The translations under genes were made by a program, and so were the position numbers. A stretch of 64,000 nucleotides of DNA, from the NCBI GenBank assembly GCA_965218695.1, contig OZ244651.1:608001-672000 (forward strand), in the 5' to 3' direction. Positions within the stretch are counted from its first letter, which is position 1. Each line of letters opens with the position of its first letter. This document shows positions 9,247-46,545 of the stretch, piece after piece. The notes below the pieces were generated by a model, which saw only the letters and a list, made by a program, of their open reading frames with translations, was not told the origin of the DNA and made no database searches. This DNA comes from Nitrosopumilus sp. GTDB taxonomy: Archaea; Thermoproteota; Nitrososphaeria; Nitrososphaerales; Nitrosopumilaceae.

Positions 9247-9822
9247 TTACCGGTCGCTCCTGCCGGCGGCCTCAAGCTCTTCACGTATCATGTCTGAAAT
9301 CGTGTATGAGCCTGAAAACTGGTCCGGTTCCAGGCCGGACTCCATGCAGACAGTCACGTCTGCCTCCGCCTTGTCAATGACAGGTTTCCAGGCAGGCTCC
9401 CACGGCCCGGCCACATCAACGCGCTTGAAGAACAGGTCATGTTTTCCTATCGCGTTCAGGATCGCGTTTACGCCGACCATGTCCGGAACACCAGGTCCGG
9501 CGTGCGGCCATTGGTTGCCGCGCACCCGTATGCGGCTCTTTTCCACGGTGGCCGTGAACACGCCAATCGGCGCGTCGGTCTTTTTTAGCTCTGAGGCAAA
9601 CGACTCCCCCTCCCTGGTGACTTTCCCGGGCAGGCGCTTGTCCCACTCTTTTGCCTCGTACACGTTTAGCCGCACGACGCGCTTGTCGGTTCCGTCCGGC
9701 AGCACGCAGGCCCGCAACGAGTCAAATGCGGCATAGTACGGATCCCTGGAGGCCACCGTTTCAACCCACACCGTGTTGTCTTTCTTTGTCCCAACCACGT
9801 GGAAACTATTCATGGCCGTCAA
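9247..9822 (-). CDS. Hypothetical protein
   Basis: 191-aa ORF overlapping the upstream ORF end, operon-like. Confidence 0.6.
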   Translation of the reverse strand: MTAMNSFHVVGTKKDNTVWVETVASRDPYYAAFDSLRACVLPDGTDKRVVRLNVYEAKEWDKRLPGKVTREGESFASELKKTDAPIGVFTATVEKSRIRVRGNQWPHAGPGVPDMVGVNAILNAIGKHDLFFKRVDVAGPWEPAWKPVIDKAEADVTVCMESGLEPDQFSGSYTISDMIREELEAAGRSDR

Positions 9823-10369
9823 TCCTCGCGTCGTGTTCGTTGATCATCCTGTCAATTGTGCCGTCGGCGTCTTCGTATTCGGTTTTGCTCAAAGGCAGCA
9901 ACATGGAATTGCAGTCGACCTCGTGTCCGTCTTCTACCCTGCCGGCCAGCTCCCACACGCCGCATCCTTGGCGTCTCATCACCAGGTCGTGGCTCCCGCA
10001 CGCATCCTTGATTACGTCCGGCGTCAGCGCGCCTTCAAACTGGCCGTGATGGGTCTTGATAACATTCAGGGAGTTCCTACACGTGACGTCAAACGCCGCA
10101 TAGAACCTGTGCTTCCCGCCGTACATTTTTTCGGCAAACTCTTTTTCTTCTGCAGGATGATGTCCGTCATGATACATGTCGCCGTCCTGAAATTCAAATA
10201 CAAGCACGTTCATGTCTATGGCGTCGTCCTGGTTCAGGCCGAGCGTCTGGATAAGGTTCAGTACAGCATGGAACGGTTTGCCTGCTTCTGTCGTGCGAAC
10301 GCCCCTGACGTGTTTGCGCCGAATCGTGCCGGAATAGGCCGCGTGATAGTACGGCATCAGGCCACCCAC
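9806..10369 (-). CDS. Hypothetical protein
   Basis: 187-aa acidic ORF, GC3-biased codons. Confidence 0.6.
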   Translation of the reverse strand: MGGLMPYYHAAYSGTIRRKHVRGVRTTEAGKPFHAVLNLIQTLGLNQDDAIDMNVLVFEFQDGDMYHDGHHPAEEKEFAEKMYGGKHRFYAAFDVTCRNSLNVIKTHHGQFEGALTPDVIKDACGSHDLVMRRQGCGVWELAGRVEDGHEVDCNSMLLPLSKTEYEDADGTIDRMINEHDARIDGHE

Positions 10370-10444
10370 CCCTCTTGAATCAATTCCAATCCCACTTCAC
10401 AATACAACTGCCATTACAATAAAAGCCACAAATTTCCCTCGAAT

Positions 10445-10575
10445 ATGCACCATCAGCGTGCACCATCAATGTCGGCGCTCATGCGCAACATAGTTGTGCA
10501 GCATAGATGTTCAACATGGCGTTAACCTTGGTGTTCAACATGGTTGTTCAACACGGTTGTTCAACACGGTTGTGC
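10445..10575. repeat. Degenerate 12-13 bp tandem repeat array (GTTCAACAYGGTT)
   Basis: Units at 10533, 10546 and 10559 are near-perfect; degenerate units at 10483, 10496, 10509, 10521; TGCACCATCA twice at 13-bp spacing upstream. Confidence 0.75.
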
Positions 10576-10621
10576 TACAACTCCCGCCATGGCGCCAATA
10601 AAAAATAGAAAAAATGGGGTG

Positions 10622-11056
10622 TTAGTCTGCCTGGTTCTTGCGCTCGTAATCGCTGATGCAGTCGTCCAATTCGTCCCAGAGCTGCGATATCAACGAGTCC
10701 TTGTCTGACTTGGTGTATTTCTTGAATACGGCCTCGACTTCTTCCCTGGTCGGCTCCTCTTTGCCCCGGTTAAAGTACGCCTGGGCCACGTCTTCCCATG
10801 AAAGCCACATGATTGCTTCCATGGCCGGCATCCCAATCCATTCGGGCATGTCGTCTGCCATCCTCATTTTGAGATACTCGCCGTCGCGCACGATCTGCCC
10901 GAAACCTTCTGCCATACCGTCTATGATTTTCTTGGCGTCGTCGTAGCTGGTGCCGGTGGCCTCTGCCGCATGCACCGCTGCCACATACCACTTGATGAAT
11001 TTTTTTTCCTTGATCTCAGTGATAACATGGTTTTGGAATTCGGCTATCTGTTTCAT
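10622..11056 (-). CDS. Hypothetical protein
   Basis: 144-aa ORF with an AT-rich TATA-like element upstream. Confidence 0.7.
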   Translation of the reverse strand: MKQIAEFQNHVITEIKEKKFIKWYVAAVHAAEATGTSYDDAKKIIDGMAEGFGQIVRDGEYLKMRMADDMPEWIGMPAMEAIMWLSWEDVAQAYFNRGKEEPTREEVEAVFKKYTKSDKDSLISQLWDELDDCISDYERKNQAD

Positions 11057-12210: not shown

Positions 12211-13560
12211 ATGTACAAGACGGTCCGCGTGCCAATATACTATGATTCAAGATTCGAGGAGTCCTTCGAGGAGCAGCTGAAAAATTACGATACCGCGTAC
12301 AAGCACGCGATAGCCTGGTATTACGACGAGGCCGAAGCCGTGCGGGAGTTTTTGGAGGAACAGGGCGCGGAGCCGGATTCCATACCCGGACTGGTATGGA
12401 CGAGCCTGCCCGGAACGTACCATGCGTACTACAGGCTTACCGAATTCAGGCGCGGCAAAAACCTGGGACCCGCGCGCCTGCAAAGGGCCGCGTGCTGCCG
12501 CGCGCGTGAGGCGGTTTCCAAGTTCCTGCATTCCAACATGAAGAAGCGATGGTCCAGAGACAGACTGGCCAAAGACGGCCGCAAGCCCAGATGCAAAAAA
12601 CCAGAAACGCTTCTAAAAAACCAACACACCGTGCTATCGCAGGCCGCACCCATAGCCAAAAAAGGTGGCATGTTGTACCTGCCTGGCGTTGGCCAAATCC
12701 AACTGGCCCGCAAGATACCCAACATGGATATGCGGTCGTACTCATTAACAAGGAAGAGCGGATACATTGAACTGCATGTCTACATACGTGAACCAGATCC
12801 CCCTCTGAAGAGGAATGCGGGCGAGCCGATAATCTGCATAGACGCAGGAGTAAAGCACGCGCTGGCAGTATCGCTCCAGCAGGACGGAACCAACCACGTC
12901 TGGTTCATGGATCCGCCAGAAAATGCAAGAAGGCACAAGGACGATGATATCTCCTGGCTGTACTCCAAGCGTTCCAAGAAGAAGCGCGGCTCCCGCGACT
13001 ACAAGGCAATAACCAGACGGATCCAGGCCAAAGCCAAAAAGATTGCAAACCGCGCCCAAAACTGGGAGCGCCAGGCTGCGAGCTTTTTGTCCGGACTTGC
13101 CGGCAAGATAGTCGTGGAGGATCTGAACCTTCAGGCAATGGCCAAGCGAAAATACGACACGCCAGGCAACCGCGGTTTGAACCGCAGCATGGCATATTCT
13201 CGGATCGGCTCCCTTCTGGATACGATAGAATGGGGTTGCAAAAAGGGCGGCACCATACATGAAACCGTGCCCGCAGCATACACGTCCCAAACGTGCTGCA
13301 TGTGCGGGACCACAGATTCCAGATCCAGGGAAAACCAGGCAGACTTTCACTGCACGTGTTGCAGGTCCGCAATGAACGCGGACGAAAACGCCTCCGTGAG
13401 CATATCGGTTCGGGGAGGCGCGGCGGCAGGTATGGCCGTCGTCAAGCAGGAGGACGGTGCCCGTTTGTTCGGGCTTCCAAGGAAGGAACCGCCGACGCGC
13501 GGCCATTCCATGATAGCTCAAATTGCTCGGAGCCGCCGGACTGTCGGCAGACCCCGATAA
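12211..13560 (+). CDS. tnpB: TnpB RNA-guided endonuclease (IS200/IS605/IS607-derived, no TnpA)
   Basis: RuvC triad CIDAG / VVEDL / NADENAS; YTSQTCCMCG...FHCTCC zinc finger. Confidence 0.9.
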   Translation: MYKTVRVPIYYDSRFEESFEEQLKNYDTAYKHAIAWYYDEAEAVREFLEEQGAEPDSIPGLVWTSLPGTYHAYYRLTEFRRGKNLGPARLQRAACCRAREAVSKFLHSNMKKRWSRDRLAKDGRKPRCKKPETLLKNQHTVLSQAAPIAKKGGMLYLPGVGQIQLARKIPNMDMRSYSLTRKSGYIELHVYIREPDPPLKRNAGEPIICIDAGVKHALAVSLQQDGTNHVWFMDPPENARRHKDDDISWLYSKRSKKKRGSRDYKAITRRIQAKAKKIANRAQNWERQAASFLSGLAGKIVVEDLNLQAMAKRKYDTPGNRGLNRSMAYSRIGSLLDTIEWGCKKGGTIHETVPAAYTSQTCCMCGTTDSRSRENQADFHCTCCRSAMNADENASVSISVRGGAAAGMAVVKQEDGARLFGLPRKEPPTRGHSMIAQIARSRRTVGRPR

Positions 13561-13767: not shown

Positions 13768-14037
13768 ATGGCAAAGGATTTCCAGGTCAAATACGACGGG
13801 CATGATGCCGTGCTGGCCGTGGGCGACTCCGTAACGTGCAAGACAGACGACAACAAGCAGCACGCGTTCTTTGACGTGCAGCTGGACCGCGTGTGTTTGG
13901 CGGCGCTGTCGGACAAAAAGTCAGTCAGGCTCAACTGGTTCGTGCAGGACGGCGTGGAGACGGCGTCGTTCAAGTCCAAGTACGCGGCTAGAATAGTGGA
14001 AGAGATACGCGCCGGGGGTGCTGCGCTGCATGGATGA
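13768..14037 (+). CDS. Hypothetical protein
   Basis: 89-aa ORF; CCCC-TTTTAA 27 nt upstream. Confidence 0.65.
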   Translation: MAKDFQVKYDGHDAVLAVGDSVTCKTDDNKQHAFFDVQLDRVCLAALSDKKSVRLNWFVQDGVETASFKSKYAARIVEEIRAGGAALHG

Positions 14038-15442
14038 TGATAATGACGGCATAGACAACATGTATGACGTGGACAGGCCTGCAGAAGGTGCCGGCCAGGC
14101 AGAGGCCCAAGAACCGGCCGGAAGCCGGAAGTCCGCAGAAGGCCCGGAACCGGCCGGAAGCCGGCCTGCAGGCGGGCCCGCAGAAACAAAGGAGTCTGAC
14201 AAGGATGCTGCGAATTCGGACGGCAAGAAATACTCGTCCACCGTCGAGCAGGGCACGGAGTTTGAAAAGCAGGTGGCCGATCTCATGAAATCATACGGCT
14301 ACAATGTGACGCACGACGTCACGTTGGTTGGGACTTCAGGAAACACGCACCAGATAGACGTGTATGCCGAGTACAAGTGCCCGATGCACACCAGCAAGAT
14401 GATAGTCGAGACCAAGTCGTACAAACACAATCTGAGCAAGGACATAGTGATGAAGCTGATGCGCCAGATGGAGGATCTCGGCATAGACAGGACGGTGCTG
14501 GCAACAACCAGCGACTTTTCCATCGGCGCCAAAAAAGAGGCAGCCGCGTACGGCACCATAGAACTGTGGAACGGCGACAAGATCAAGGAATTCATGGCAA
14601 ACAAGGGAATTGACACAAGCGACGCGGGACTGCTCGGTGCTGCCAAGCGATTCATACGGGCCAAGGTCAACGGCAAGCGGATCCGCAAGAACGCGTCCAA
14701 ATCCGCAAAAAGCAGGTCCGGCGGCGCCATATTCGGCAGGGGCAAACCGAAGGAAAGCGTCACCCAGGTCGAGATGGTATCGTACCCGTATCTGGACGTC
14801 AGCGTCCAGACCAACATAACCAGGATGGAAAAGACCGGCTGGAGGAAGCGCGAATCCGTGACCCGCACGGTGGTGGAACACGTCACGCTGGACGGCCGCA
14901 CGGGCGTGCTGGCGGATTTTGCGAAAAACGGCCCGTCGTACAAGTATGCGTATCTTGATTCCATGCTTGACGACGAGATGGCGATCCTGCACGAAGTCGC
15001 CGGAAAGCAGTCGTTCGGGCGTGAAGAGATCAGCAAGACCGGCCTGTCGTCGGGTGCCGCAAACACAGCCTTGCTGAAGATGGCCGGCATCGGCATCGTC
15101 AAACAAATGGGCACAAAACCAGTCAAGTACGTCTCGAAAGCGCCGTTTCCGGCGGCTCCGGCCGCGTTGAGGGGCATAGGGAAACTGTTCGGCAAGGGCA
15201 TGATTGACCGGGATCCCGGGAACCGAATAATAGACATCCGCGCCAGGATCGGCGACATGGAAAAGAGCCTTGGCAGATATTGGAATGGATGCAAGGTCAT
15301 TTCAGTCGAGCAGGTATATTACCCGTACTATGACGTGCGCTACGAATCCACCGACGACAGCAAGCGCAACGAGATGATAGACGGCATCACCGGCAGGCCG
15401 CAAAAGTACCTGGCAAAAGTCATGGCAGCCGACGATGATTGA
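14030..15442 (+). CDS. Mrr-like restriction endonuclease domain protein with C-terminal extension
   Basis: GTEFEKQVADLM..GY, QIDVYA, IVETKSY, LATTSDFS..A, IELWNGD (Mrr_cat pattern); disordered N-terminus with an EPAGSR repeat. Confidence 0.8.
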   Translation: MDDDNDGIDNMYDVDRPAEGAGQAEAQEPAGSRKSAEGPEPAGSRPAGGPAETKESDKDAANSDGKKYSSTVEQGTEFEKQVADLMKSYGYNVTHDVTLVGTSGNTHQIDVYAEYKCPMHTSKMIVETKSYKHNLSKDIVMKLMRQMEDLGIDRTVLATTSDFSIGAKKEAAAYGTIELWNGDKIKEFMANKGIDTSDAGLLGAAKRFIRAKVNGKRIRKNASKSAKSRSGGAIFGRGKPKESVTQVEMVSYPYLDVSVQTNITRMEKTGWRKRESVTRTVVEHVTLDGRTGVLADFAKNGPSYKYAYLDSMLDDEMAILHEVAGKQSFGREEISKTGLSSGAANTALLKMAGIGIVKQMGTKPVKYVSKAPFPAAPAALRGIGKLFGKGMIDRDPGNRIIDIRARIGDMEKSLGRYWNGCKVISVEQVYYPYYDVRYESTDDSKRNEMIDGITGRPQKYLAKVMAADDD

Positions 15443-15714: not shown

Positions 15715-16206
15715 TCAAGCGATTAACCCGGCCCACCTTTTCACGTCTATCGGGTCCAGCATGGTGCATTCTATGCCAGCCGCCTTCAGCAGTTTGTCGT
15801 CATTTTCAGCATACGTCCCAATGCAGACAATCCTCCTGATTCCTGCCGTGATTAACATTTTGGTGCACTCCAAACATGGAACCAGCGTCGTGTACATTGT
15901 GGAGCCGCCGACTGCCACGCCCAGCGTGGCGCAGTGCACTATGGCGTTGGATTCTGCGTGGCTGCAAAGGCAGCGTTCAAGTGATTCGCCCGATCTTATC
16001 TTGCCTGCCTTTCGTTTTGCGCACCTGTCGCACCCGCCCTCGTAACAGTTGGCTAGCCCGGACGGCGTGCCGTTGTATCCCGCAGAAAGCTGTATGTGGT
16101 CACGTACAATCACGGCCCCGATCTTGCGCGTGAGGCAGTTGGAGCGCAATTTGACCAGCTCGGCCTGCAGCATGAAGTACGTGTCCCAGTCCGGCCTTGC
16201 GTCCAT
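15715..16206 (-). CDS. dCMP deaminase
   Basis: RPDWDTYFM, RSNCLTRKIGAVIV, GYNGTP, HAESNA, PCLEC zinc motifs. Confidence 0.92.
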   Translation of the reverse strand: MDARPDWDTYFMLQAELVKLRSNCLTRKIGAVIVRDHIQLSAGYNGTPSGLANCYEGGCDRCAKRKAGKIRSGESLERCLCSHAESNAIVHCATLGVAVGGSTMYTTLVPCLECTKMLITAGIRRIVCIGTYAENDDKLLKAAGIECTMLDPIDVKRWAGLIA

Positions 16207-16279
16207 GCATTGAATGGACGGTTTTGTTTTAAGGAGAACTTCAAGTTGGTTCCTTTTATCCAAACACGCCCTTTATTCC

Positions 16280-21730: not shown

Positions 21731-21879
21731 AAAAAACCGGAAAAATACGGCCCAAAACTACTCGTGTCGGGCATGTGGCAAGTCCGCTCGCCTCAAAATC
21801 CAAAACAACATGCGCAGCCTTGCAGCACTTCATCGTGCCCTGAATTCTACTAAACCGGAGCTTTGGAGCAGGCCCTGTC

Positions 21880-22369: not shown

Positions 22370-22446
22370 ATTGAATACATGATAACCCCACCCACCCACT
22401 ACCTGTGGCGGGCTGACCCCTAAATTCACCTGGTCACAAAGACCTA

Positions 22447-32332: not shown

Positions 32333-32407
32333 CCTAATCAAGCCGGCGGTTTTTATCATTTCCATGACTGCCAGACATGGGCATCAGGCGGGTTCCACGA
32401 CAACGAC

Positions 32408-32575: not shown

Positions 32576-32747
32576 ATGCAACCGGGTGCGCCTGAGTACT
32601 GGCTCGTGTACAGTCAGCCCAGTTGCTGGCAGACATGGCAATTACCACTGAATGTGATGAATTTGTCACATTCAGCGGCAATCAGGCAGCCATATCGGAT
32701 TCGGTCCGGATGCGTTGTCAACTGGCACGACTGTCCAAACACCGACC

Positions 32748-35244: not shown

Positions 35245-35304
35245 CGGGATTGATGGAATGGTTGGCATAAAAGGAAACCCAACTCCTTGTACCAAAATGC
35301 CGCT

Positions 35305-35553
35305 ATGAAAAACAAATGCAACTGCAGGCCGTGCTCTGACACGTCTGGCAAAAACAAAACGCGCGCGTGCGGCATGTGCGGCGGGACGATGAAGAACGTC
35401 CAGGTCGTGTGTTACAACGAAAACTCCAACGTCATAGGGCAGCAATGGGTTACCAAGAGAGGCGATCCACGGACGTCGAACCACGGTTGGTCACAAATGC
35501 GGCGGCGAATGCATGGTCTAGCATGCAAGAATTCTCCCTTTTTACGTGGATGA
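35305..35553 (+). CDS. Small Cys-rich hypothetical protein
   Basis: KCNCRPC...ACGMCG. Confidence 0.5.
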   Translation: MKNKCNCRPCSDTSGKNKTRACGMCGGTMKNVQVVCYNENSNVIGQQWVTKRGDPRTSNHGWSQMRRRMHGLACKNSPFLRG

Positions 35554-35565
35554 TCCCTCGGCATC

Positions 35566-35760
35566 ATGCCAAAATACAACGTGACTGTCCAACTGTCAGG
35601 CATAAACGGCAACGCCATCGCAACGCTCAACGCCGTCAGTCGGGGGCTGAAAAGGGCAGGCGTGCAGCAGTCAGAGATAGACAAGTTTCAGAGTGAAGCC
35701 ACGTCCGGCGACTATGACCGCGTGATCCAGACGGCCATGAAATGGGTCAACGTGGCATAG
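35566..35760 (+). CDS. 64-aa phage-type conserved small protein
   Basis: LSGINGNA...LKRAG...EATSGDYDRVIQTAMKWV fits a GxDGNAF...SGDYxxL pattern I recall from phage proteins; CCC-TTTTTA 27 nt upstream. Confidence 0.75.
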   Translation: MPKYNVTVQLSGINGNAIATLNAVSRGLKRAGVQQSEIDKFQSEATSGDYDRVIQTAMKWVNVA

Positions 35761-38248: not shown

Positions 38249-38587
38249 ATGTTAGTGTCCGGCATAGTCATAATCGTCCTGGTCGTGGCAGGCGCGGCAG
38301 TGATGTTCTTCTTGACAGAATCAAACAACCAGACCATAGCAGCGGGTACCATAATCGCCATACATGACAACGAGCGCGTCAAGGAAGACGTGGACATCGT
38401 GTGGGGCGGCCAGGACTTGAAGATGCACAACGCCGGGCCTGAGACGGAGATACTTGAATACCGCGTGCTTGATGATGACGGCACCCTACTTCGCGTCTGT
38501 ACGGTCGAACATGAGGTGGGAGCGTCCGTGAAAGAGACGGTCAATACGGCGGCATTCGACGAATGCTGGCAGGAGTTTTTGACATGA
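38249..38587 (+). CDS. Secreted/membrane protein with N-terminal hydrophobic helix (pilin-associated-like)
   Basis: MLVSGIVIIVLVVAGAAVMFF followed by ERVKED..HNAG..EYRVLDDDG. Confidence 0.65.
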   Translation: MLVSGIVIIVLVVAGAAVMFFLTESNNQTIAAGTIIAIHDNERVKEDVDIVWGGQDLKMHNAGPETEILEYRVLDDDGTLLRVCTVEHEVGASVKETVNTAAFDECWQEFLT

Positions 38588-41286
38588 GGACAAAACTGGC
38601 TGCAGTCGCATTGGTATTGGCAATAGCCGCCGCAGCATACGCGGGATTCGCAGAGGACGCGTTTGCCAAACAGCTCCAGGTGGTTACGTCGCGCGGCAAC
38701 GTCTTTACCGTAAAGGTTGACATACCGACCAACAGCACGCATACTGTCCTGGTAATCAACAGCACGCAAATAATCAACAGCACGCAGGTGATCAACAACA
38801 CCAACCCCGGGATAACCTTCCCGATGGAAATCGTCACGAAGAACGCAGAGGGCCACATCGTCTACGGGAACGGCACGAGTGGTGCAGAAAAGCCGCTGGA
38901 CCCGTACACGTTCCCAGGCGAGTTTGAGTTTGCAGCAGTCGTGCTGGACGCGGACGCCAAGAATACGATGCCCATACCCAAACTCCTGGCAAAATACGAG
39001 ATGGTTAATGACGATTCGCTGAACTGGATAGAGGACACCGACACCGGCGACAACATCCTGGTTCCGCTGGACGTGGATCCGGCAACATACGGGAACGGGT
39101 GGAAAGTGGAAGGCGATTGGACAGTACTTGACAACACTCCAGGGGAAAGCCGCAAGACACAGGCCAGCATAGACCTCCCGCTAAACGAGCAGCTCACGAT
39201 GAAGGGCGACATTTCAAGCGGCATGACGGTCCAAATCATATCGGTCGTACGGCCTTTCAACCCCAACACCGTCAGTTATTACAGTCAATACGTATCGTCT
39301 TCTTCTTCGTCTTTGGAAAAAAAGTATTTCGAGTATGACGGCCCGACATTCAGTTATTTTGGCAGTAAATACATACCCAAACAATGTACATGGTGGCCAA
39401 ACAGTTTGACATACCAGGGATTCAAGACCAACTATCCGAGTCCCGGACAGGGACTCGGGCCAAACCACATCGTCTATAATGGATACGGACCTACCAACGT
39501 GGCCACTAGCGCGGGCTGCGCAATACAACCACATATAACCACATACATAAATGGACCCGGGTCGAATATCGGATTCGACGGCGACCGATGGACAGGTTAT
39601 ACAATATACGGAGAGATGTTGAGAAGCACCAGCGGGCTTACCCTGTATCCAAACGTTTACGCTCTTGGCTGCCAGTCGTCAACGCACATAAGCGTAACGA
39701 CAAGTTATAGGGAAGGCGGAAGTAGCGGCATACACACCGTGAATGTGCCGTACACTAAAACGCCTACTGTGACTTGTGTCAGTGAACACGGATACCAAAA
39801 AATCACGAGAATTGACATCCCAGGCGAGTCCATACGAAAGAAAATAGAACGTGTTGGTTATGGTTCTGCTCCCACCTTGACGTTTTACGTGCCTGTGACT
39901 GCATCTGTCCGGATCGACATACCGCAAATACCGCCCACAATACAGGTGCTGCACTCGTTCAGCGGGCAAGACATTAGCCATCCTTTCACTATGCAGTCGT
40001 ACAGCGGAAACCTGTATCTCAGGACGGTCGGCGGTGACGCCACGTCGACGGCACAGATCAAGGTGTTTGAGGGAGAGGAGATCCCGCCGGCATTCATAGT
40101 TACGAACATGCCAGAGAATGCGCCGTACAGGATAACGGCCGACGGCATCACCATAATATCCGGCCTGACGTCGAGCGCAGGCGGCATAGAAGTCACTCCT
40201 GCAGACATGGATTTTGATTTCTTTGAGGGCAAGAATCTTGAACTCACGATATGGCCCGACTCCCTGTCCAGACGCGGAGGCAGCAGCGATGCCGTGATGT
40301 TTGACGCATACAACAAAGAAACCAAGGACTTTCGGTGGCACGTTCCAATCATATACGTGGCCGAATCCATGCTGCAGGTAAGCATAGATCAAGACGGCAT
40401 GGACATTGCCGGAGTCATATTGGAAGGCGGGTCTGACATCAGTTTTGATGGGCGCCAGGGGTTGTACAATGACGGGGACGAGTTGCTTGTCCCGCTGTAC
40501 CCGGATGCCAATGCGATTGCAATCAGGGTCAACGGGGAATGGGCAGACGGCATCCTGGCAGATATCCAGCAGTTTCCGCATTCTGTAAGAATGACAGAGG
40601 CCGAAAACTCCGCGACCAAATACGCTTTCAGCAATGACCTGGGATTCACGGTGGCGCGCGCGTCTGACAGGATCGCCGCGTTTGCCAACAGCACCGGCGA
40701 CATGCAGATCCAATTCGTCAATGCCAAGGCGTCCGGAAGCGCGGAATTCCCGTTTGACTCCTATTACTATGGAAACTTTACCCCGCCCGGAGCGCCTGAC
40801 ACGGAGGAGTGTTTCGTGTATGACAGGTGCGGTGTATGGGTGGACAGTGCCACGCATGCAGACCCGACCAGCGTCAGTTGGGGCCCGATAACGCAGTGGG
40901 TAATAGACAACAATCCGGCGGGGGTGCAGCAGGTGATGGCAGCACAGGGGCCGCTCACGGTATACGTCAATGCGTACGTAAACGGCGAATGGGTCCAAGG
41001 CCAGACGATATTTGAAAGCACGGACGTCACTGTCGTGCCCGGCGATTACTTGGACAGGCACCTCGTATACCAGTACAACGGCGGCCTGGAATACGGCATG
41101 GAAGACGACGATGCAACCATGCGCGTGCCGGTCCAATCAGGCGACTTTGTGGAGTTTGTGGTGAGCTCCAGAACAATGGCGGCCTCGACTCCGGTGTATG
41201 CAGGCAGCGGCACTTCAGCAGACGTATGGTGGGGAAACAGCACGTCGCGAATCCACAGCGGCCTCATGCAAGTCAGCATGCCGTGA
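38584..41286 (+). CDS. Large secreted beta-rich surface protein (~900 aa)
   Basis: Signal peptide MRTKLAAVALVLAIAAAAYA; ATGA overlap with the upstream gene; repeated INSTQ sequons. Confidence 0.8.
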   Translation: MRTKLAAVALVLAIAAAAYAGFAEDAFAKQLQVVTSRGNVFTVKVDIPTNSTHTVLVINSTQIINSTQVINNTNPGITFPMEIVTKNAEGHIVYGNGTSGAEKPLDPYTFPGEFEFAAVVLDADAKNTMPIPKLLAKYEMVNDDSLNWIEDTDTGDNILVPLDVDPATYGNGWKVEGDWTVLDNTPGESRKTQASIDLPLNEQLTMKGDISSGMTVQIISVVRPFNPNTVSYYSQYVSSSSSSLEKKYFEYDGPTFSYFGSKYIPKQCTWWPNSLTYQGFKTNYPSPGQGLGPNHIVYNGYGPTNVATSAGCAIQPHITTYINGPGSNIGFDGDRWTGYTIYGEMLRSTSGLTLYPNVYALGCQSSTHISVTTSYREGGSSGIHTVNVPYTKTPTVTCVSEHGYQKITRIDIPGESIRKKIERVGYGSAPTLTFYVPVTASVRIDIPQIPPTIQVLHSFSGQDISHPFTMQSYSGNLYLRTVGGDATSTAQIKVFEGEEIPPAFIVTNMPENAPYRITADGITIISGLTSSAGGIEVTPADMDFDFFEGKNLELTIWPDSLSRRGGSSDAVMFDAYNKETKDFRWHVPIIYVAESMLQVSIDQDGMDIAGVILEGGSDISFDGRQGLYNDGDELLVPLYPDANAIAIRVNGEWADGILADIQQFPHSVRMTEAENSATKYAFSNDLGFTVARASDRIAAFANSTGDMQIQFVNAKASGSAEFPFDSYYYGNFTPPGAPDTEECFVYDRCGVWVDSATHADPTSVSWGPITQWVIDNNPAGVQQVMAAQGPLTVYVNAYVNGEWVQGQTIFESTDVTVVPGDYLDRHLVYQYNGGLEYGMEDDDATMRVPVQSGDFVEFVVSSRTMAASTPVYAGSGTSADVWWGNSTSRIHSGLMQVSMP

Positions 41287-41816
41287 TTGGCCAAAACGCG
41301 GCATAATTGAAAGATGGTACACCATACTGTACCAACAACCGTACATGCCATGTTTACTTATCATGAATACACATCCCTTTATTACTGACGGAACATCAAT
41401 AATGTCATGAACCTGACCAACCCACGGATATTCATCCCGCTGGCGTGGCTTGGCTGCACGGTCGCGTATTTCGTGGCGGCGTTCTGGCTGCCGAGGCCGG
41501 ACTTTGCGGTCCAGGAGACGGCAGTGCCGGTAAGCGGCATACTTGAGATTTGGTGGCACGAGATAATGAGGAGCGCGCCAGTGCTGATACCGGGGTTTGG
41601 TGCAGTATGGGGAATCCTTTCCAGCATGGGCTTTGCCCACTCCGTGTTCTTCATGTCAGAGAACGGTATGTTTGCCATGGGACCGCAGTTCATGTTCGTG
41701 ACGTTTCCGTTCCTTTCACTGTACTTGTTGGCGCAGTGCATCATGATCAGGCGCGGAATCCTGATACTCATGGCCTTGCGGCAGCCTGCAGAAACCGAAG
41801 AGGTGGCAGCAGCGTA

Positions 41817-43455
41817 TAGTGCCCATCATAAAGATCCGGAACGGTAAACCCAGTTTTGGTTCCGGTACTGCCTGAATAATCAAAACCTTAAGATCAGCGA
41901 TACCTCCGCGCTTAATCATGGCTGGTACAAAACGCCGAAACGAAAACATACCCAAGGGAGACGCGTTCATGGCAGGCACATCCATGAGGGAGATCCAAGA
42001 GGCCCTCAAAAAAGAGAAGAACGGCAAAGCAGTCAACATACTGCTTGCCTGCATGTGGAGGCGTGAGGGAGAAGACGGGGTATGGATCGCAGGCAAGCTG
42101 CACGTGCCGGTCAGTACCATTTACGACCGGCTGCACCGCATGCACTTGGGCGGTCTTGATGCATGTCCTGACAAGACCAAGCCCGGAAGGCCAAGAAAGA
42201 TCCAGCCAGAAATCCATTCAAAGATATCCGAGTCCATCGACAGGCAGCCGGGCGGATGTGGGATAAAATCCAACGTCTGGACCGGAAGGCTGATTCTGAT
42301 CATGATCTCCAGTCTGTTCTCCATTGACAACGTCTCTCCCAGTACGGCATACAGGACGATGCACAGGCTGAACAAGACATACAGAAAACCCGGAAGGCCG
42401 CGCCACGGCCGCTCGCCTTCTGACGAGGTAAAGGCAGAATTTAAGCGCGGCCTGGCAAAGGAGATTTTTAGCAATACCGTGGATGGACACCGCCTCTTCT
42501 GGATGGACGAGTCCCATTTTACCACAAAAACGATCCGCGGCATGACCTGGCTTGCGCGTGGCCTGTCAATACCGCAGGTGATCAAGCCGTTTGGCAGGAG
42601 CTACACGTGCTTTGGGGCACTGGGATTGGACGGTCTGCTACACCACAGGTACTATGACTGCGGCAACACCGATTCGATGATTGATTTTGTCAATGGCCTG
42701 CACGATGCCTACGGGAAGGTACTCTTGGTGATGGACAATGCATCCATCCACAAATCCAAAAAGCTGATGGCAGAGTTGAAAAAGTACGATGGGGACGTCA
42801 GGATTGCCTACCAGCCGACATATTCGCCGGATCTCAACCCAGTCGAGATGGTCTGGAAAGAACTCAAGAGGTACGTCGCCAACGGCCTGTACCGGCGTGT
42901 GGAGGACATGACGGGAGCCATGGACGAGATGATTCAGTCAGGCACGGTAAGTCTGCCCCAACTGCCAGAATACGCGACAGATGCAATCAGGCGCGCCAAG
43001 GCGACTGCTGCTGCCTGACGACTTGGGGGCGAGGTGCGCGTACCTGTGGGAGTCAGGCCCGATCCTTCGAGTATGGATCACGACACTCGTGCCGCGCATC
43101 TAGCCCGCCGTGGTGCATCCGGCACAGCCAGTCCTCGACTGTATCGGGTGACATGTAAAACATGTCTGCAATCTCCGAGCACCCGTCACCTTCCTTGCGC
43201 CGTAGGCAAATGAGTAGCGGAAAACTGCTCCAGGCATACCTGTCCATCCCGTGTACTGCCCGGATGTCATTGGCAGATATGCCCTCCATGAATTTGTCCC
43301 CCTTGGGCACCTTGTCGTCCGGGTGTTTTTCTCCGGTCACGGCATGGTCTGGGAGTGGAATGATCTAAACGTTTCTGCTGTCCCGGTAGTGCGATGCCGG
43401 ACGCGTGACGTGCCAAAATCCCCGTCACCATTCCGGATATTTATGACGGGTACTA
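41817..43455 (+). mobile_element. IS630-family IS with transposase 41918-43018 and a convergent second ORF
   Basis: ~30-bp TIRs TAGT(G/A)CCC(A/G)TCATAAA(G/T)ATCCGGAA(C/T)GGT with TA duplication; MDESHF, MDNASIH, SPDLNPVE. Confidence 0.92.
43053..43340 (-). CDS. Stand-alone paralog of the IS630 transposase N-terminal HTH domain
   Basis: PKGDKFMEG..LL.C..RKEG..IA..T..WL.RMHHGGLDA aligns with the transposase's PKGDAFMAG..LLAC..REG..IA..T..RL.RMHLGGLDA. Confidence 0.75.
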   Translation of the reverse strand: MTGEKHPDDKVPKGDKFMEGISANDIRAVHGMDRYAWSSFPLLICLRRKEGDGCSEIADMFYMSPDTVEDWLCRMHHGGLDARHECRDPYSKDRA

Positions 43456-44089
43456 TACCACGAGTCCGAACAGACCGCTGGATGGAGCGAAAGCGGTAGC
43501 GGTGGATATGACGCCTCCTTTATTGACAAACTTGCTCCGATGGCAAGGCCGTTCCTGCGAGATGCCGGCATATTCTTCGCGCTGCTGTTCGTCTCGGCTG
43601 TCCTGACGTTCGTGGCATGGGGCGAGGCGCCGTCAAGCACGACGCTCCAGGCATATTGGACATACAACGGAATGCTTGACTATTGGGCAACACTGCCAGA
43701 AAGGATCGGTGAATTTGTGCCTGTCGTTGACTGGGACACCATGGTTGGCACCGCGTGGGAATCGCTTGTTTGATCCCGGCCGGCGTGCCATGACGAGGCG
43801 TGAATCTGCCATCGCGTGAATGACCCTCAATTGGAACCATCCCGCGGTACGTACGCATGCATGCACAGTTTCTGCAACGCGATGCTGTCTGTCTTGCCGC
43901 GCAAATGCCAGGTCATCTGCCAAACCATATTGTAAACGGCTCCGAGGTGGCACCGCCAAGATGTGTATATCTTAAGCTCATTCCGGCCAGATTGCCTTCG
44001 TACCGGTGCTCAAATTCGGCATGGCCTTTCCATGACATGCTGCCATGAAGCATTATGTGTCGCGTAGGGTCGGTGCGCGTCCCTCTGTC

Positions 44090-45634
44090 GTATGAATTCA
44101 CCTGCCCCTTATATCAGTCGACCAACTTCTTCGGCCACGCTCTTGCCATGTGCCCTCCACGTGAGGACGCACGTGACAAAATCTGCAAGGCGCTTCATGG
44201 CCTTGGAGCCGCCCTTGGTCTGCCCGCTTATCTTGCGGAACACCACCAGGTAGCGCAGCGCCCTCTCGCTGGCGTTGTTTGTAGGCTCGACGCCGGGATG
44301 CTCCAGGAACGCAAACATGCGGTGCAGGTGCCTCTCGAGCTTGTCCAGCACCTTTTGCATGTCGTCATCGTCACCACCACCACCGGCATCGCGGTACCGG
44401 TCAAGCACGTCCTGCATGGTGCGGTTCATCGTATGCCGCAGCTGTGGCGAGCGCGCCTCCTGCGCGGCCAGCAGTTTTGCCCTCTCAAACACCCACTTGT
44501 GGTCCTCGTGGAGCTGCCGCCGCCGCCGCCGGACACGTTTGGTCTCGGGAGGCACGGCGCAGTATTTTTCTGCCAGGTGCCTTGTCTGCCGGAGGTCGTG
44601 CGCCCAGCACGACTGGTGCATGCCGTCCTTGTCAAACCTGTCATATCCGGTGTACCCGTCAGTTATCGCCACCCCGTCAAATTTGTCCATGGCATCGAGC
44701 ATGAGCGTGGCCCTGCTCTGGCTGATGTTTATTGCGATGTTTTTGCCCGACTGTGCCACGTTTGCGTGTACCTTCTGGCCGTCGTTTCGCCAGCTGGTTT
44801 CGTCAAACCCGGCACAGTCAGAAGCCTCCACTTCCCCGAGGATCCTGCCTGCCTCGTGGCCCGAGGCGTCCCCGACGCGTGCCATGATGTTGTTGACGGT
44901 GGATCCTGCAAGCATAATGCCCGTTATGGAGCGCACCGCGACCGAGATTCCCTTGAGCGGCACCCGTGCCGCGCGCAGTTCTGAGACGAGTCCGACCATG
45001 CCCTTGCCGAAGTTGCCCCGCCGCGGCAGGTCGTTTGGAGCATCTTCCCTGCGGCCGCATGAGCCGCATACTGCAGTCTCCACGCGGTGCCGCGTCTCGC
45101 ACGCAGTCACCCTGATGTCCGTGATGTCCCGCACGCGCGGACTGCCAATCGCCATCCGGCCGCCGCCGCCGCCGCACCCGCATTCCGGGAGCACCGGCAC
45201 CCGCCTCCTGCCCGACTTCCTGCGCCCGAACCTGTGGGATACGGTCCTTTCCGGGTCGTGGGGGCGCGACGCCCCCGCGTGTCCCTTTCTTCCCCCGCGC
45301 TTGGATTTGCCCTCCTTTTCCTGTTTTTTTGCCCGCTCCCTCTTCTGGGCCTTCCATTCCAGGGATTCAGATGAGGGCGGCGTGTTGGGGTTTGTATAGT
45401 ATGTCATGAGGCGTTCGCTGTACCCCAAGGCCCTTTCAAGACGTTCTATCCTGCCAAGTGCCTTCTCAAGATCGGATTTGAGGGTGGCAATCTCCCGGTT
45501 CCGTGCTAGGAGTTCCTCTTTTAGCTGGTCCCTGCTCATGTGCCGTGAATTTACCATGTAAAGTGATGTGTATTGCCAGCATATGGATCAGTATGATCAT
45601 TTTTTTGTGACAGGAAGGACAGGTGAATTCATAC
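44090..45634 (-). mobile_element. IS66-family insertion sequence (single transposase ORF 44109-45557)
   Basis: TIRs GTATGAATTCACCTG(C/T)CC; 8-bp TSD CCTCTGTC (44082-89, 45635-42); PPSS, DETSW, TDGY, QSCWAH, PTNNASERALR. Confidence 0.95.
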
Positions 45635-46174
45635 CCTCTGTCCGCTCAAACCTTTAAAAGAAAAGCATCCCAATACAAAACGTGGTTATTATAAACTGCA
45701 ATATTGTAGCGAAAGTTCGTATTTAAACTGCTTTTGGAAAAACTGGTATTCCCGTTTTGGCCGGTTCCGTGTAGGGCACAAGATACGGATTGCCGCCGTT
45801 GCACAACTCGATGTTTGACGCATGTCTGCAGTGTACCCTGCATGCTGGGAATCGGAGACGGCACAATGAAGAAGTTTTGCGGCCGTTTTATTAGATTCAA
45901 TGCCTGCTTCCCATGGAACGCAGGCGGGCATGTCGCTGGGGGCCGATATCGGACATGTCAGTGGTTGTGAGCATGTCGGCGTTCTGGGCCGTCTGCGGGT
46001 GGCTGTTTGCGCAGATCATGTTTCCCGAACTGCCGCACATGGTGCCAATCACGATATCCCTGATACACATAACGCATGTGGCATATTTTGCCATTGCAGA
46101 CTGGCGTGCGTCAAGAACTATCCCTTGAATGCCGAATAGTAACGTGCTTCGTGGCAGTGTCACTTGCCGCATGA

Positions 46175-46321
46175 TCATTTGAGAAAGCAGTATTTGCACT
46201 GCGATGCGTATCCGGCCTGCCTGTTCTTGCCGCAGTCGTCGCACCACCCGTTGCCTATGCATGACTCACATACGGTCACGTTACTCTCACACCGATCCAT
46301 TCTGCAATGATTGCACATCAT
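46175..46321 (-). CDS. 48-aa GWC-family double zinc finger (isolated copy)
   Basis: MMCNHC-x11-CESCIGNGWCDDCG-x10-CKYC; CCC-TTATA 27 nt upstream. Confidence 0.78.
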   Translation of the reverse strand: MMCNHCRMDRCESNVTVCESCIGNGWCDDCGKNRQAGYASQCKYCFLK

Positions 46322-46545
46322 GGACGGATATGCTCCAAAATGGTATAAGGGAAAAGTCACATGCAGGCAGACAGGCAGCACCGTATGGCGTTATGGTTCA
46401 TCCAATGTGAATGCAAATGGACCGCAAAGGCGCATCATGCACGGAATCTGGACGTGAGCGATACTGTCGTTGAGGTGGCACGCCCGTAAACCACTGCAAT
46501 CCAAGACGGGGTTTGTATAAATATCGAAAATGATCTACGTATCCC

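Follow-up and report, generated by a model that had tools for sequence, protein, structure and literature searches.

Gene content of the region

The window comprises the whole 64,000-nucleotide stretch C1:608,001–672,000 of genome G000, from an ammonia-oxidising Nitrosopumilus, which we compared with the close relatives G002 and G018. Positions without a prefix are those of the window. An earlier note on this DNA, made from the sequence alone, described a virus-like element of ~37 kb at 9247–46,350. The gene set that it listed is largely real: the dCMP deaminase, class II RNR, PolB, phosphoesterase, Tmk, TFB, tRNA and Mrr were located by Pfam or tRNA searches. The features are as follows.

427–2250, −: HATPase_c-domain protein of 607 residues (Pfam HATPase_c, E 9.6e-7), upstream of 9247
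5194–5688, −: C-terminal fragment of a GmrSD-type restriction nuclease (GmrSD_C, E 1.8e-18)
5771–7069: ORF of an IS630-like element (DDE_3; 150 further tblastn matches in the genome)
12211–13560, +: IS605-type TnpB (OrfB) (Cas12f1-like_TNB, E 1.2e-11; OrfB_IS605, E 8e-7)
13768–15442, +: module Z, an 89-aa ORF and an Mrr-family restriction endonuclease (Mrr_cat, E 5.5e-18)
15715–16263, −: second dCMP deaminase (dCMP_cyt_deam_1, PF00383, E 1.3e-21)
16518–20210, +: RNR2, class II ribonucleotide reductase (Ribonuc_red_lgC, E 7e-145; ATP-cone; intein splicing and LAGLIDADG domains)
21794–23560, strand not assigned: IS fragments (Pfam DDE_Tnp_4; HTH plus DDE_3)
24276–25121, +: calcineurin-like metallophosphoesterase (Metallophos, E 5.9e-9)
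25346–25936, +: 196-aa protein of a large uncharacterised family, ending 30 bp upstream of PolB2
25966–29454, +: PolB2, family B DNA polymerase (Pfam exonuclease and polymerase domains; LAGLIDADG/Hom_end intein)
29817–29892, +: intron-less initiator-type tRNA(CAU) with C33 (ARAGORN and Rfam)
30880–32600, +: tandem array of at least seven genes for four-CxxC zinc-ribbon mini-proteins of ~45–60 residues (translations)
34687–35484, −: second thymidylate kinase, Tmk (Thymidylate_kin, E 2.7e-27)
35566–35760, +: 64-aa protein of PHROG family 1933 (phrog_1933, E 2e-17)
36075–38052, +: IS-split, element-type TFB gene (TFIIB, E 1e-21)
38249–43773, +: module W, a 112-aa ORF, a 907-aa signal-peptide protein and 146-aa and 77-aa ORFs
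44087–45637, −: IS66-family element just within the right boundary (DDE_Tnp_IS66, E 8.5e-29; repeat block)
46102: right boundary, where synteny with G002 returns
49977–54860: inserted 1627-aa gene that breaks collinearity with G002

One item of the earlier list is misplaced, the dCMP deaminase having been put at 9247, and another, the Vsr-like nuclease, was not confirmed, the Pfam Vsr matches lying solely at C1:1624403 and C1:1784703, outside the window. Both large enzymes contain an intein. That of RNR2 covers about residues 459–821 (nucleotides ~17892–18980) and that of PolB2 residues 615–940 (27808–28785), inserted between YGD and TDS. PolB2 ends in QSGMDEFFW, which in the alignment fits what we take to be the PIP-box pattern, as the earlier note had read it; the regions that we take to be the exonuclease and polymerase motifs are conserved with the host PolB. 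The family of the adjacent 196-aa protein has 2241 representatives at E ≤ 0.001; its AF2 model has a pLDDT of 89.8, and its likeness to the XPA/Rad14 DNA-binding domain is weak and non-significant (best E 0.046). The metallophosphoesterase has a 44% homologue on a PolB-bearing 68-kb contig, G161:C3.

The small ORFs noted earlier as orphans do occur at about 30.9–32.6 kb, but they form the four-CxxC array, which consists of direct repeats with a ~200-bp period. The TFB had been called host-type; its identity is 62% with one other island TFB and no higher than 33% with the remaining TFB genes of the genome. Its Zn-ribbon piece (36075–36309) and cyclin repeats (37484–38052) are separated by an IS5-like element of 1174 bp with terminal inverted repeats (36310–37483), whose transposase has 100%-identical copies elsewhere and which is a recent insertion. 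The core-repeat match spans 37399–38052, and the Zn-ribbon match at 36075–36329 is weak (Zn_Ribbon_TF, PF08271, E 5.8e-5; 23.0 bits, cut-off 29). An intact TFB paralogue lies at C1:553809–554630. Module W, whose 907-aa protein has a hydrophobic N-terminal segment, is split by an IS630-like element at 41918–43018.

Extent and chromosomal setting

From 46,102 to the window end the sequence is collinear with G002:1732236 downward, except for the inserted gene, and collinearity with G018 begins at ~46838. The return of host-like genes noted earlier at ~46.5 kb is thus borne out; 9247, however, is no boundary and 37 kb is too small. Island-type genes reach the window start and extend 129 kb further, so that the region forms the right-hand end of an accessory stretch of ~175 kb (island A, C1:479,185–654,102). 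Upstream of 9247, the 607-aa HATPase_c protein gene has no further copy that we could find in the genome; the GmrSD fragment adjoins the IS630-like element and matches the PADLOC HEC-06/Orf5 models over the last ~150 model positions only.

The search for an empty site, proposed earlier, gave a positive answer: the ~175 kb are absent from the corresponding site in both G002 and G018. In G002 the counterparts of C1:479,185 and C1:698,790 are joined (gap 170 bp), as are those of C1:654,102 and C1:715,479 (gap 24 bp); in G018, the counterpart of C1:655,121 is joined to that of C1:764,566 (gap 48 bp). No repeat was found at the island A junction, no intact integrase or att repeat for island A and no partial tRNA repeats within C1:470–770 kb. 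GC content and codon usage are those of the host. IS elements are present, as the earlier note stressed, but do not distinguish the region: multi-copy repeats, among them blocks 21794–22373 and 22522–23560, make up 11.7% of it and 21.6% of contig C1. The IS66-family element gives 104 further tblastn matches in the genome, and the chromosome is rearranged throughout.

Island A is collinear with a paralogous island B (C1:699–764 kb). Module Z (Mrr gene, 14018–15442) is common to both, with paralogues at C1:758326–759877 (49% aa for the 89-aa ORF and 59% for Mrr), and module W is paralogous to C1:702425–706243 (68–90% aa). Homologous island pieces in G002 sit at other chromosomal positions (74–87% nt). 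The TnpB element matches G002:1933136–1934720 (87% nt), module W the G002 island at 1077–1081 kb (67–83% aa) and the 64-aa protein 1084118–1084309 of that genome's island (77%), and a 66% homologue of the 196-aa protein lies near the RNR2 of G002.

Second gene copies and their ancestry

Second copies, which the earlier note had proposed to look for, exist for PolB (73% aa by tblastn), dCMP deaminase (C1:1548526–1548996, 70%), RNR (C1:2153256–2155877, 60%), Tmk (C1:2104591–2105169, 54%) and Mrr, and the initiator tRNA, the TFB and the metallophosphoesterase recur as well; the window genes are therefore not the sole genomic copies, and the refutation that the note had specified for its reading does not hold. 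The host copies of PolB, dCMP deaminase, RNR and the tRNA are syntenic orthologues of genes in G002, the nearest relative. The host deaminase adjoins the host PolB, an arrangement shared with G002 and G018 (locus 92.6% nt identical to that of G002), the host RNR locus is 94.4% identical and the intron-bearing tRNA at C1:355971–356060 lies within a G002-syntenic block and carries a 15-nt D-loop insert, likewise in G002. The tRNA of the window folds into a cloverleaf with A1:U72 paired and an anticodon stem that has three G:C pairs at its base. G000 has three initiator tRNAs, whereas each of the other 36 genus genomes that gave a match (40 searched) has one; the second island copy, at C1:502300, adjoins an extra RNase HII. 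Besides this RNase HII (36% to that of the host), island A holds an extra Mre11-like phosphoesterase (70%) adjoining Rad50 (54%) and an extra PCNA (69%); G002 and G018 each have no more than a single locus for Mre11-Rad50 and for PCNA. A second MCM was not found, and searches aimed at other families brought up no Cdc6-type initiator in the island. These extra replication and nucleotide-supply copies are absent from the relatives at the island A site, and the second gene set is divergent but intact.

In the tree PolB2, P0002 and P0003 cluster together (100), within a larger clade of 13 rows (99) that includes the host PolBs of G000, G002 and G018; a host-only PolB clade, a group named after the tree had been seen, was rejected by the AU test (p 0.004). 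RNR2 groups with G002 P0121, P0122 and P0123 (100, stem 0.73) inside the Nitrosopumilus RNRs, a position that long branches may affect. Both genes sit on long stems within the genus and are Nitrosopumilus-derived paralogues, not members of a distant viral lineage. Both have been under purifying selection (omega 0.18 for PolB2 against host PolB and 0.19 for RNR2).

Placement inside the genus, host-like composition and a rearranged chromosome with 21.6% repeats would also suit an old host duplication kept in an IS-saturated genome with no mobile element involved. We consider this the least credible reading, since the genes would have to have been lost from almost all of the 151 genus genomes searched. 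Among these, PolB2-type genes occur in G000 only (143 with a PolB match; the extra PolBs of G137, G161 and G152 are different ones) and two RNR matches in G000 and G002 only (137 with a match). Moreover, the RNR2 genes of G000 and G002 lie at different chromosomal sites and their dS of 1.05 (host RNR1, 0.18; host PolB, 0.21) is an approximately sixfold synonymous excess over host orthologues. The second gene copies also have restriction, methylase, VirB4, TFIIB and integrase-like genes around them, in DNA missing at the relatives' syntenic site.

Origin of the accessory stretch

The wider island context gave Pfam matches to an AAA_10/TraG-P-loop ATPase, T2SSE, T2SSF, wHTH plus TFIIB, ArdC_N and TFIIB, with weak pilin_N, PrgI and integrase matches; DNA methylases and restriction genes lie in the same context. 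Homologues of the ATPase carry the NCBI name 'VirB4 family type IV secretion system protein'. Island B holds VirB4-family, FlaI-like, TadC-like and TFIIB genes and at its edge a weak integrase-like ORF (C1:762538–764364), the sole one nearby and below Pfam cut-offs. The VirB4/T2SSE/T2SSF/TFIIB/ArdC_N context matches the description of thaumarchaeal ICEs in PMC6563490. A pairing of TFIIB with ParB, described as specific to such ICEs, is missing, ParB_N being matched only at C1:2342278 and C4:2773.

PolB, RNR, nucleotide kinase and deaminase, tRNA and inteins are a typical combination in large dsDNA viruses. This combination, the match of the 64-aa ORF to a PHROG family and many ORFs of no known family speak for a relic of a large thaumarchaeal dsDNA virus whose virion genes were lost or are unrecognisable. 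Such an origin is improbable. A virion search with two families (HK97-type Phage_capsid and Terminase_6N) had no match anywhere in the genome, and nine of ten orphans had no PHROG match, the exception being the 64-aa ORF. PolB2 and RNR2 had no relatives in IMG/VR, where a profile search gave only a 22% match; identity to PolB2 reaches no more than 26.5% for GenBank phage PolBs and stays below 27% for phage and plasmid PolBs. The region is, besides, collinear with an island holding T4SS/pilus-type genes. Of the earlier proposal of a virus or extrachromosomal element, the second half is favoured, a plasmid-like origin being most likely.

The secretion module lies ~70–90 kb and many IS elements away from the PolB2/RNR2 module. 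The two may never have shared one element, the replication and nucleotide genes having come from separate cryptic integrated elements of CIE type, such as the PolB-bearing G152 element or ThaMY3-E2, that inserted into older ICE remnants or next to them. Compared with island B, island A contains two additional, separate blocks. One, Mre11-Rad50-PCNA, is flanked by the 590167 and 601037 homologues; the other, of 15 kb, runs from dCMP deaminase to PolB2 and the tRNA and is flanked by the Mrr and w30369 homologues, a position at which island B holds just 320 bp. In G152 an integrase-like gene and a tRNA-Leu ~50 kb from each other flank a PolB (38%), and the interval also holds a TFIIB-like gene; no VirB4 was found in the 60 kb examined. 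PMC6563490 describes one iMGE piggy-backing inside another and a 98.3-kb CIE with PolB and MCM. This composite origin is possible but doubtful: neither block has an integrase, att site or other boundary, and island B may merely have lost both, its G002 version being more reduced still. In addition, Mrr adjoins RNR2 in the G002 island too, so this adjacency predates G000.

We therefore favour, with a probability of roughly 0.6, the reading that the ~175 kb are the remains of at least one integrated, plasmid-like thaumarchaeal element of ICE/CIE type with a captured replisome. Transfer of the element nowadays is unlikely, because neither VirB4 gene reaches the length of its relatives and both have IS elements immediately upstream, the TFB is split and no intact integrase or att site was found for island A. 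The replication kit would descend from old copies of genes of Nitrosopumilus hosts in the same subclade, and the element or elements would have integrated and later been rearranged through IS elements and an inversion. The kit would comprise the PIP-box PolB, PCNA, RNase HII, Mre11-Rad50, the dNTP trio of RNR, dCMP deaminase and Tmk, the element-type TFB and two intron-less initiator tRNAs, adjoining a VirB4/FlaI/TadC secretion-transfer module, DNA methylases and restriction genes. All these parts may once have belonged to one element, in which the kit genes would have driven autonomous replication and transfer of an episome.

Extent and genomic setting of the island

The assembly of the source Nitrosopumilus sp. 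genome (G000) comprises 2.63 Mb in nine contigs, and the window occupies positions 608001–672000 of contig C1, which has a G+C content of 52.8%. The names attached to the near PolB and RNR homologues identify the organism as Nitrosopumilus. Its nearest complete relative is G002, with 84–94% nucleotide identity in syntenic host DNA, followed by G018. G002 1620001–1677435 corresponds to G000 411118–479185, G002 1677605–1732236 to G000 698790 down to 654102 in reversed orientation, and G002 from 1732260 onward to G000 from 715479 onward. The order in G018 is that of G002, with the counterparts of G000 655,121 and 764,566 joined across 48 bp. By this block mapping, G000 C1:479,185–654,102 (174.9 kb; island A) has no counterpart at that site, which is empty in both relatives (a 48-bp junction in G018, and 24-bp and 170-bp junctions in G002). 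The earlier note had proposed a 37-kb relic of a virus or extrachromosomal element at window 9247–46350. Its right edge was well placed, falling at window 46,102 by synteny, but 9247 is not a boundary, as the left edge actually lies 129 kb before the window start.

Because the G002 match is reversed and the G002 order is common to G018, the host block at 654–699 kb is inverted in G000 relative to both. This 45-kb block of host genes (C1:654102–698790), which includes the window EF-2 and MqnD genes, lies between island A and a paralogous island B (C1:699–764 kb). A few kilobases of island B are kept in G002 at the same junction (83–88% nucleotide identity); G018 keeps none. No repeat was seen at the G002/G000 junction and no att repeats were found flanking the islands. 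A tRNA as integration target was rejected, as no tRNA-derived repeats were found within C1:470–770 kb. The small contigs C2–C9 have no genes in common with the islands, except two at the edge between island B and the host. Pieces of island A are scattered in G002 over IS-rich places at ∼1075–1115 and 1931–1977 kb (74–87% nucleotide identity); the protein-level comparison with G002 and G018 covered parts of those genomes.

Repeats with at least three other copies make up 21.6% of C1. The IS load, which the earlier note had treated as a character of the element, was rejected as an island marker, since multi-copy repeats occupy 11.7% of the region versus 21.6% of C1. Some IS copies are 99–100% identical between G000 and G002 (e.g. 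L047:262–1597 and G002:1164873–1166208) despite the 84–94% identity of host genes, which suggests recent IS exchange between the two lineages. The syntenic host DNA of the window also contains an inserted 1627-aa gene without a Pfam family (49977–54860, minus strand) that is missing at this site in G002 and G018. Its paralogues lie at C1:484–501 and 706–712 kb (49–81% amino-acid identity) and G002:1057597–1061987 matches at 77% nucleotide identity; it appears to belong to a mobile or expanding giant-protein family.

Window genes and their host counterparts

Pfam searches bore out most of the gene inventory first read from the sequence alone (Mrr, dCMP deaminase, RNR, metallophosphoesterase, PolB, Tmk and TFB repeats), and the small protein described there as phage-type does match a PHROG family. 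The Vsr-like nuclease fell away, as the Pfam model matches just two places, both outside the window.

Features of the window (window coordinates; strand where noted)
14018–15442, Mrr (Pfam)
15715–16263, minus strand, dCMP deaminase (Pfam)
16518–20210, class II RNR (RNR2) with ATP-cone and LAGLIDADG intein (Pfam)
24276–25121, metallophosphoesterase (Pfam)
25966–29454, PolB2 with intein, DNA_pol_B and DNA_pol_B_exo1 (Pfam)
29817–29892, tRNA(CAU), the sole one found (ARAGORN, Rfam)
34687–35484, minus strand, Tmk (Pfam)
35566–35760, 64-aa ORF (phrog_1933, E = 2e-17)
37399–38052, TFB cyclin repeats (Pfam)

Aligned with the host PolB, PolB2 conserves the segments DIEVE, YNGDEFD, DFASLYPSII, KVILNASYG and YGD/TDS, which we take to be the exonuclease and polymerase motifs. 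Its 326-aa intein is located in the last of these, between YGD and TDS, and its C-terminus, QSGMDEFFW, is presumably a PIP-type motif. PolB2 is thus most likely to be an archaeal replicative family B DNA polymerase with a predicted PCNA-interacting C-terminus. RNR2 contains RNR barrel, all-alpha and ATP-cone domains by Pfam, and its homologues at 55–63% identity carry the NCBI name adenosylcobalamin-dependent ribonucleoside-diphosphate reductase. We assign it as a probable class II (adenosylcobalamin) ribonucleotide reductase, with the cofactor following from the predicted class.

The TFB gene is interrupted. Its Zn-ribbon part gives a weak match (window 36075–36329; E = 5.8e-5, below the Pfam cut-off), and an IS of 1174 bp bounded by terminal inverted repeats (window 36310–37483) separates this part from the cyclin repeats; both pieces share one frame. 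The insertion is recent, as the transposase has 100% identical copies elsewhere. The TFB had been counted among host-type genes, which its similarities do not favor: identity is 62% with a further island TFB and no more than 33% with the remaining TFB genes of the genome.

The micro-ORFs of the earlier note at ∼30.9–32.6 kb are tandem genes for mini-proteins with four CxxC pairs. At least seven such genes (window 30880–32600, plus strand) follow each other in shifting frames and encode proteins of ∼45–60 aa with a conserved GWCxxCG core. The repeats at window 30.3–33.4 kb were rejected as origin-like, as they are these small tandem genes. An ORF with the same four-CxxC motif is located where the island meets host DNA (window 46175–46381, minus strand). 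Elsewhere on C1, C1:526812–527006, C1:715579–715839 and C1:716115–716309 are mutually homologous ORFs of 64–86 aa that are conserved in G002 and G018.

Just upstream of PolB2, a 196-aa ORF (window 25346–25936, plus strand) without a Pfam match belongs to a family of 2241 representatives at E ≤ 0.001. Its AF2 model has a pLDDT of 89.8. The profile search of the PDB from its alignment gave a best E of 0.35, and Foldseek against the PDB returned nothing at E ≤ 0.001, the best match being XPA/Rad14-like (E = 0.046); we regard this possible resemblance of the model as a lead only. Apart from a GmrSD fragment, PADLOC reported only Mrr matches and weak Cas4-like ones.

tblastn located a second copy elsewhere in the genome for PolB, dCMP deaminase, RNR, Tmk and Mrr, so that sole genomic copies in the window, the outcome that would have told against the earlier note, are not what is seen.

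Other genomic copies of window genes (tblastn; amino-acid identity to the window copy)
C1:1545954–1548455, host PolB (PolB1), 73%, without intein
C1:1548526–1548996, host dCMP deaminase, 70%, adjoining host PolB
C1:2153256–2155877, host RNR (RNR1), 60%, without intein
C1:2104591, other Tmk, 54%
C1:758651, other Mrr, 59%

The host PolB/dCMP deaminase locus is 92.6% identical in nucleotides to G002:1998551–2003710 and the host RNR locus is 94.4% identical to G002:771721–780822, with collinear neighbors in both cases. Owing to this identity and collinearity, the PolB, dCMP deaminase and RNR copies outside the window are the vertically inherited ones and those in the window the extras.

Initiator tRNA matches were obtained in 37 of 41 genus genomes, with three copies in G000 and one in each of the 36 others. 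The window tRNA and a further island copy (C1:502300–502374) are intron-less and diverged in the anticodon and T arms; position 33 is C in both, compared with U in the host and genus copies. Their cloverleafs combine the CAU anticodon with an A1:U72 pair and an anticodon stem closed by three G:C pairs, which we take to be archaeal initiator marks, and both are predicted to be archaeal initiator tRNA-Met. In the host initiator tRNA (C1:355971–356060) the D-loop contains an insert of 15 nt, which is also present in the syntenic G002 copy, and the exons match the genus consensus; ARAGORN miscalls this insert-bearing gene as an odd tRNA.

Extra replication genes and their provenance

Genes of region A were called with a host codon model and then searched against the genome by tblastn. 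The region is collinear with island B over A 524–554, 586–602, 621–638 and 646–652 kb, matching B 713–744, 744–758, 758–760.6 and 702–706 kb, respectively, with protein identities of 37–90%. Compared with B, the window has 15 kb of additional sequence, beginning with dCMP deaminase and ending with the tRNA, between the Mrr and w30369 homologues. Unlike B, region A also carries a Mre11-like phosphoesterase (70% identical to the host copy) that adjoins an extra Rad50 (54%), an extra PCNA (PCNA2; 69%) and an extra RNase HII (36%) that adjoins the third initiator tRNA (C1:502300). Several DNA methylases and an MmeI-type restriction–modification enzyme are likewise located in region A. There is no extra MCM; the whole genome has one MCM gene.

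These additions are rare in the genus. G002 and G018 have single Mre11–Rad50 and PCNA loci only. PCNA was matched in 57 of the 61 genus genomes searched, with a second full copy only in G000, G043 (56%) and G059 (26%). Of the 151 genus genomes, G000 and G002 alone have two RNR matches (137 matched) and G000 alone has a PolB2-type gene (143 matched); other extra PolBs are 59% (G137), 46% (G161) and 36% (G152) identical to PolB2. In a search of 5.8 billion proteins, the nearest relatives of PolB2 were two intein-bearing metagenomic proteins (P0002 and P0003; 77 and 75%), followed by host PolBs at no more than 73%. RNR2 is closest to the second RNR of G002 (72%) and to two intein-less metagenomic proteins (P0122 and P0123; 76 and 72% over the N-extein), followed by host RNRs at no more than 63%. 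The longest contig that encodes these PolB2-type proteins measures 44.3 kb, and the longest for the RNR2-type proteins 46.7 kb. GTDB genome contigs searched with P0003 gave host-type PolBs only, mostly 41–64% in the best segment, with one 76% segment on a Nitrosotenuis chromosome and no match to the contig of P0003 itself, and a metagenome scan with RNR2 gave 80 loci, all host-type or fragments.

The second RNR of G002 (G002:C1:1106376–1110098) and RNR2 have their inteins at one and the same site; neither of the two nearest metagenomic proteins (871 aa) contains one. Several other genus genomes have a single RNR locus with a long open frame of 1227–1273 aa, which perhaps contains inteins.

In the PolB tree, PolB2 groups with P0002 and P0003 (SH-aLRT 100, stem 0.29), and this clade falls within a larger one of 13 rows (99) that includes the host PolBs of G000, G002 and G018. 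The AU test rejects the grouping of all 34 host PolBs without the PolB2 clade (p = 0.004), for a group chosen after the tree was seen. The RNR2 clade (100, stem 0.73) is located within the Nitrosopumilus RNRs, a placement to which a long-branch warning applies. dS between G000 and G002 is 1.05 for RNR2, compared with 0.18 for host RNR and 0.21 for host PolB, so the two RNR2 genes parted well before the two species did. ω is 0.19 for RNR2 (G000–G002) and 0.18 for PolB2 versus PolB1, which indicates purifying selection on both. Rarity, trees, dS and ω together suggest that the extra genes were captured long ago from this host group and were carried by a diverse and rare element lineage. The trees do not favor the viral origin suggested earlier, as PolB2 and RNR2 nest within Nitrosopumilus and are not distant viral genes. 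A casposon-type PolB was likewise rejected, as the PolBs among which PolB2 branches are cellular replicative enzymes of Nitrosopumilus.

Transfer genes and the nature of the element

The blocks shared by islands A and B encode a VirB4-family ATPase, a FlaI/T2SSE-like ATPase (524 aa, E = 4.5e-20), a TadC/T2SSF-like membrane protein (648 aa, E = 1.3e-11), a wHTH+TFIIB protein and proteins of 1652, 1000 and 907 aa with hydrophobic N-termini. In the ESM Atlas the 907-aa protein had no usable match and the 1000-aa protein only scores below 0.8. The island A VirB4-family ATPase (C1:529639–530895) matches AAA_10 (E = 4.4e-16), DUF87 and P-loop_TraG, with weak TrwB_AAD_bind and TraG-D_C matches; no separate VirD4-like protein was recognized in the 50 Pfam-scanned island proteins outside the window. 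NCBI gives the name 'VirB4 family type IV secretion system protein' to Nitrosopumilus sp. homologues of the island B ATPase (717975–719480; 39–40% identity). The two island copies, of 418 and 501 aa, fall short of the ∼600–650 aa of relatives, and each has an IS directly upstream. The islands thus probably encode a VirB4/TrbE-family ATPase of the thaumarchaeal integrative–conjugative element (ICE) type, together with putative membrane and pilus components of the same type (TadC and FlaI/PilT classes). The archaeal pilin_N match is weak (E = 0.0017, below the cut-off), and a 722-aa protein of the shared blocks with seven hydrophobic segments is VirB6-like only as a guess. ArdC_N and TFIIB models also match, and PrgI matches weakly. 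TFIIB genes are located at window 36075–38052, C1:553809–554630, C1:536495–538531 and C1:714460–715350, none beside ParB, as matches to the ParB_N model are confined to C1:2342278 and C4:2773. An integrase-like ORF at the edge of B beside the host junction (C1:762538–764364) is sub-threshold (17.6–19.3 bits).

Large DNA elements such as T4-like phages, haloarchaeal tailed viruses and Methanoperedens Borgs carry host-like replication, dNTP-supply and tRNA genes. The islands resemble them in bringing together a polymerase, RNR, nucleotide kinase and deaminase, tRNAs and inteins, and in capture from the host lineage. Unlike them, the element here is integrated and decayed, with no HK97-type capsid or Terminase_6N, and phage PolBs are at most 26.5% identical. 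Models for these two virion functions (PF05065 and PF03237) gave no match in the whole genome at E ≤ 0.01, nine of ten window orphans had no PHROG match, and IMG/VR contained no relatives of the PolB2 or RNR2 N-exteins and gave only a 22% match to the PolB alignment. All PolB matches in phage and plasmid collections were below 27%. The earlier virus-relic reading is weakened by these results, and we consider a provirus improbable.

Thaumarchaeal ICEs (NCAV2-E1/E2, NitIsl-E3, NitEve-E6 and others; Krupovic et al., 2019; PMC6563490) are described in the main text of that survey as integrated, with a median size of 64 kb, occupying DNA absent from a close relative. They encode a VirB4-type ATPase, TadC, FlaI/PilT ATPases and pilins, always have TFIIB homologues, usually just upstream of ParB, and vary in their replication modules. 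The islands match this description in their VirB4-family, T2SSE/FlaI-like and T2SSF/TadC-like proteins, weak pilin_N, TFIIBs, ArdC_N and the empty site in G018; by the main text, their gene set is that of thaumarchaeal ICEs, save for the ParB–TFIIB pairing. They differ in that ParB is not next to TFIIB, no separate VirD4 was recognized, both VirB4 genes are shortened with an IS upstream, the integrase is weak and att was not found. They differ further in carrying a cellular-type Nitrosopumilus PolB paralogue with PCNA, RNase HII, Mre11–Rad50, RNR, dCMP deaminase, Tmk and initiator tRNAs. According to the main text, elements of the survey have MCM, Cdc6, and primase-type or casposon-type polymerases; PolB among its ICEs is restricted to NitEve-E6, where it is casposon-like rather than cellular-type, and PCNA, Mre11 and ribonucleotide reductase each have no occurrence there. 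ThaMY3-E2, a 98.3-kb cryptic integrated element (CIE) with PolB and MCM and no virion or conjugation hallmarks (PMC6563490), is by its description similar as a large thaumarchaeal integrated element with PolB and a host-type replication protein, but the islands have no extra MCM and a much broader host-derived set of replication and nucleotide genes. Given the secretion-module context, we favor an ICE/CIE-type origin.

If this origin is granted, it is somewhat probable that the replisome genes and the VirB4 module once formed one element. That they are instead separate elements, one nested in the other, is a less likely but possible arrangement that draws on G152. In that genome (C1:∼1579–1630 kb), as on G161:C3, an extra cellular-type PolB accompanies the host one. 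The G152 PolB falls within the ∼50 kb that separate an integrase-like gene from a tRNA-Leu. VirB4 is missing from the 60 kb examined; a TFIIB-like gene is present in the stretch, as is, next to a tRNA, a homologue of window ORF 29889–30332. No att repeat was found at the tRNA-Leu. These PolBs are just 36–46% identical to PolB2 (over the C-extein, 46% for G161 and 36% for G152), and no RNR2, PCNA2 or VirB4 homologues occur in the G152 and G161 stretches examined. G161:C3 is a separate contig of 68,160 bp (32.7% G+C) that also carries a homologue of the window phosphoesterase and two tRNAs.

The boldest reading, to which we give a probability of about one in four, is that the 175 kb may be the remains of a giant element of symbiont-type Nitrosopumilus that could replicate itself and transfer, with its own replisome (PolB–PCNA, RNase HII and Mre11–Rad50), dNTP supply, TFB and initiator tRNAs, and with live relatives still circulating (the metagenomic P0002, P0003, P0122 and P0123, and the RNR2 island of G002). 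Under the favored ICE/CIE-type origin more generally, an episome would probably have been replicated by PolB2 clamped by PCNA2, with RNase HII, while Mre11–Rad50 would handle end processing or recombination. RNR2, dCMP deaminase and Tmk would raise the dNTP supply, especially dTTP; the element's own TFB would steer the host RNA polymerase; methylases would protect the element; the VirB4/FlaI/TadC apparatus would move it and a tyrosine recombinase would integrate it. At present the transfer genes and TFB are disrupted, and the replication and nucleotide genes are intact.

Mobile elements of ammonia-oxidizing archaea are known mostly from surveys of the 2019 era, and our full-text literature search turned up no account of an element like this from Nitrosopumilus. 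In the main text of the survey (PMC6563490), no element combines a cellular-type PolB with PCNA, RNase HII, Mre11–Rad50, RNR, dCMP deaminase, Tmk and initiator tRNAs. PolB, PCNA, RNR and the initiator tRNA are not reliably single-copy markers in these genomes. If the boldest reading is correct, the island would represent an archaeal conjugative 'mini-chromosome', in ambition near Borgs or jumbo viruses, and the first known ICE-type element with a cellular-type replisome. If all of these genes were on one element, they would show the reach of an archaeal plasmid or ICE toward replicative autonomy by the copying of host genes, and would provide natural, divergent and selected PolB/PCNA and RNR pairs for tests of element-versus-host replisome specificity.
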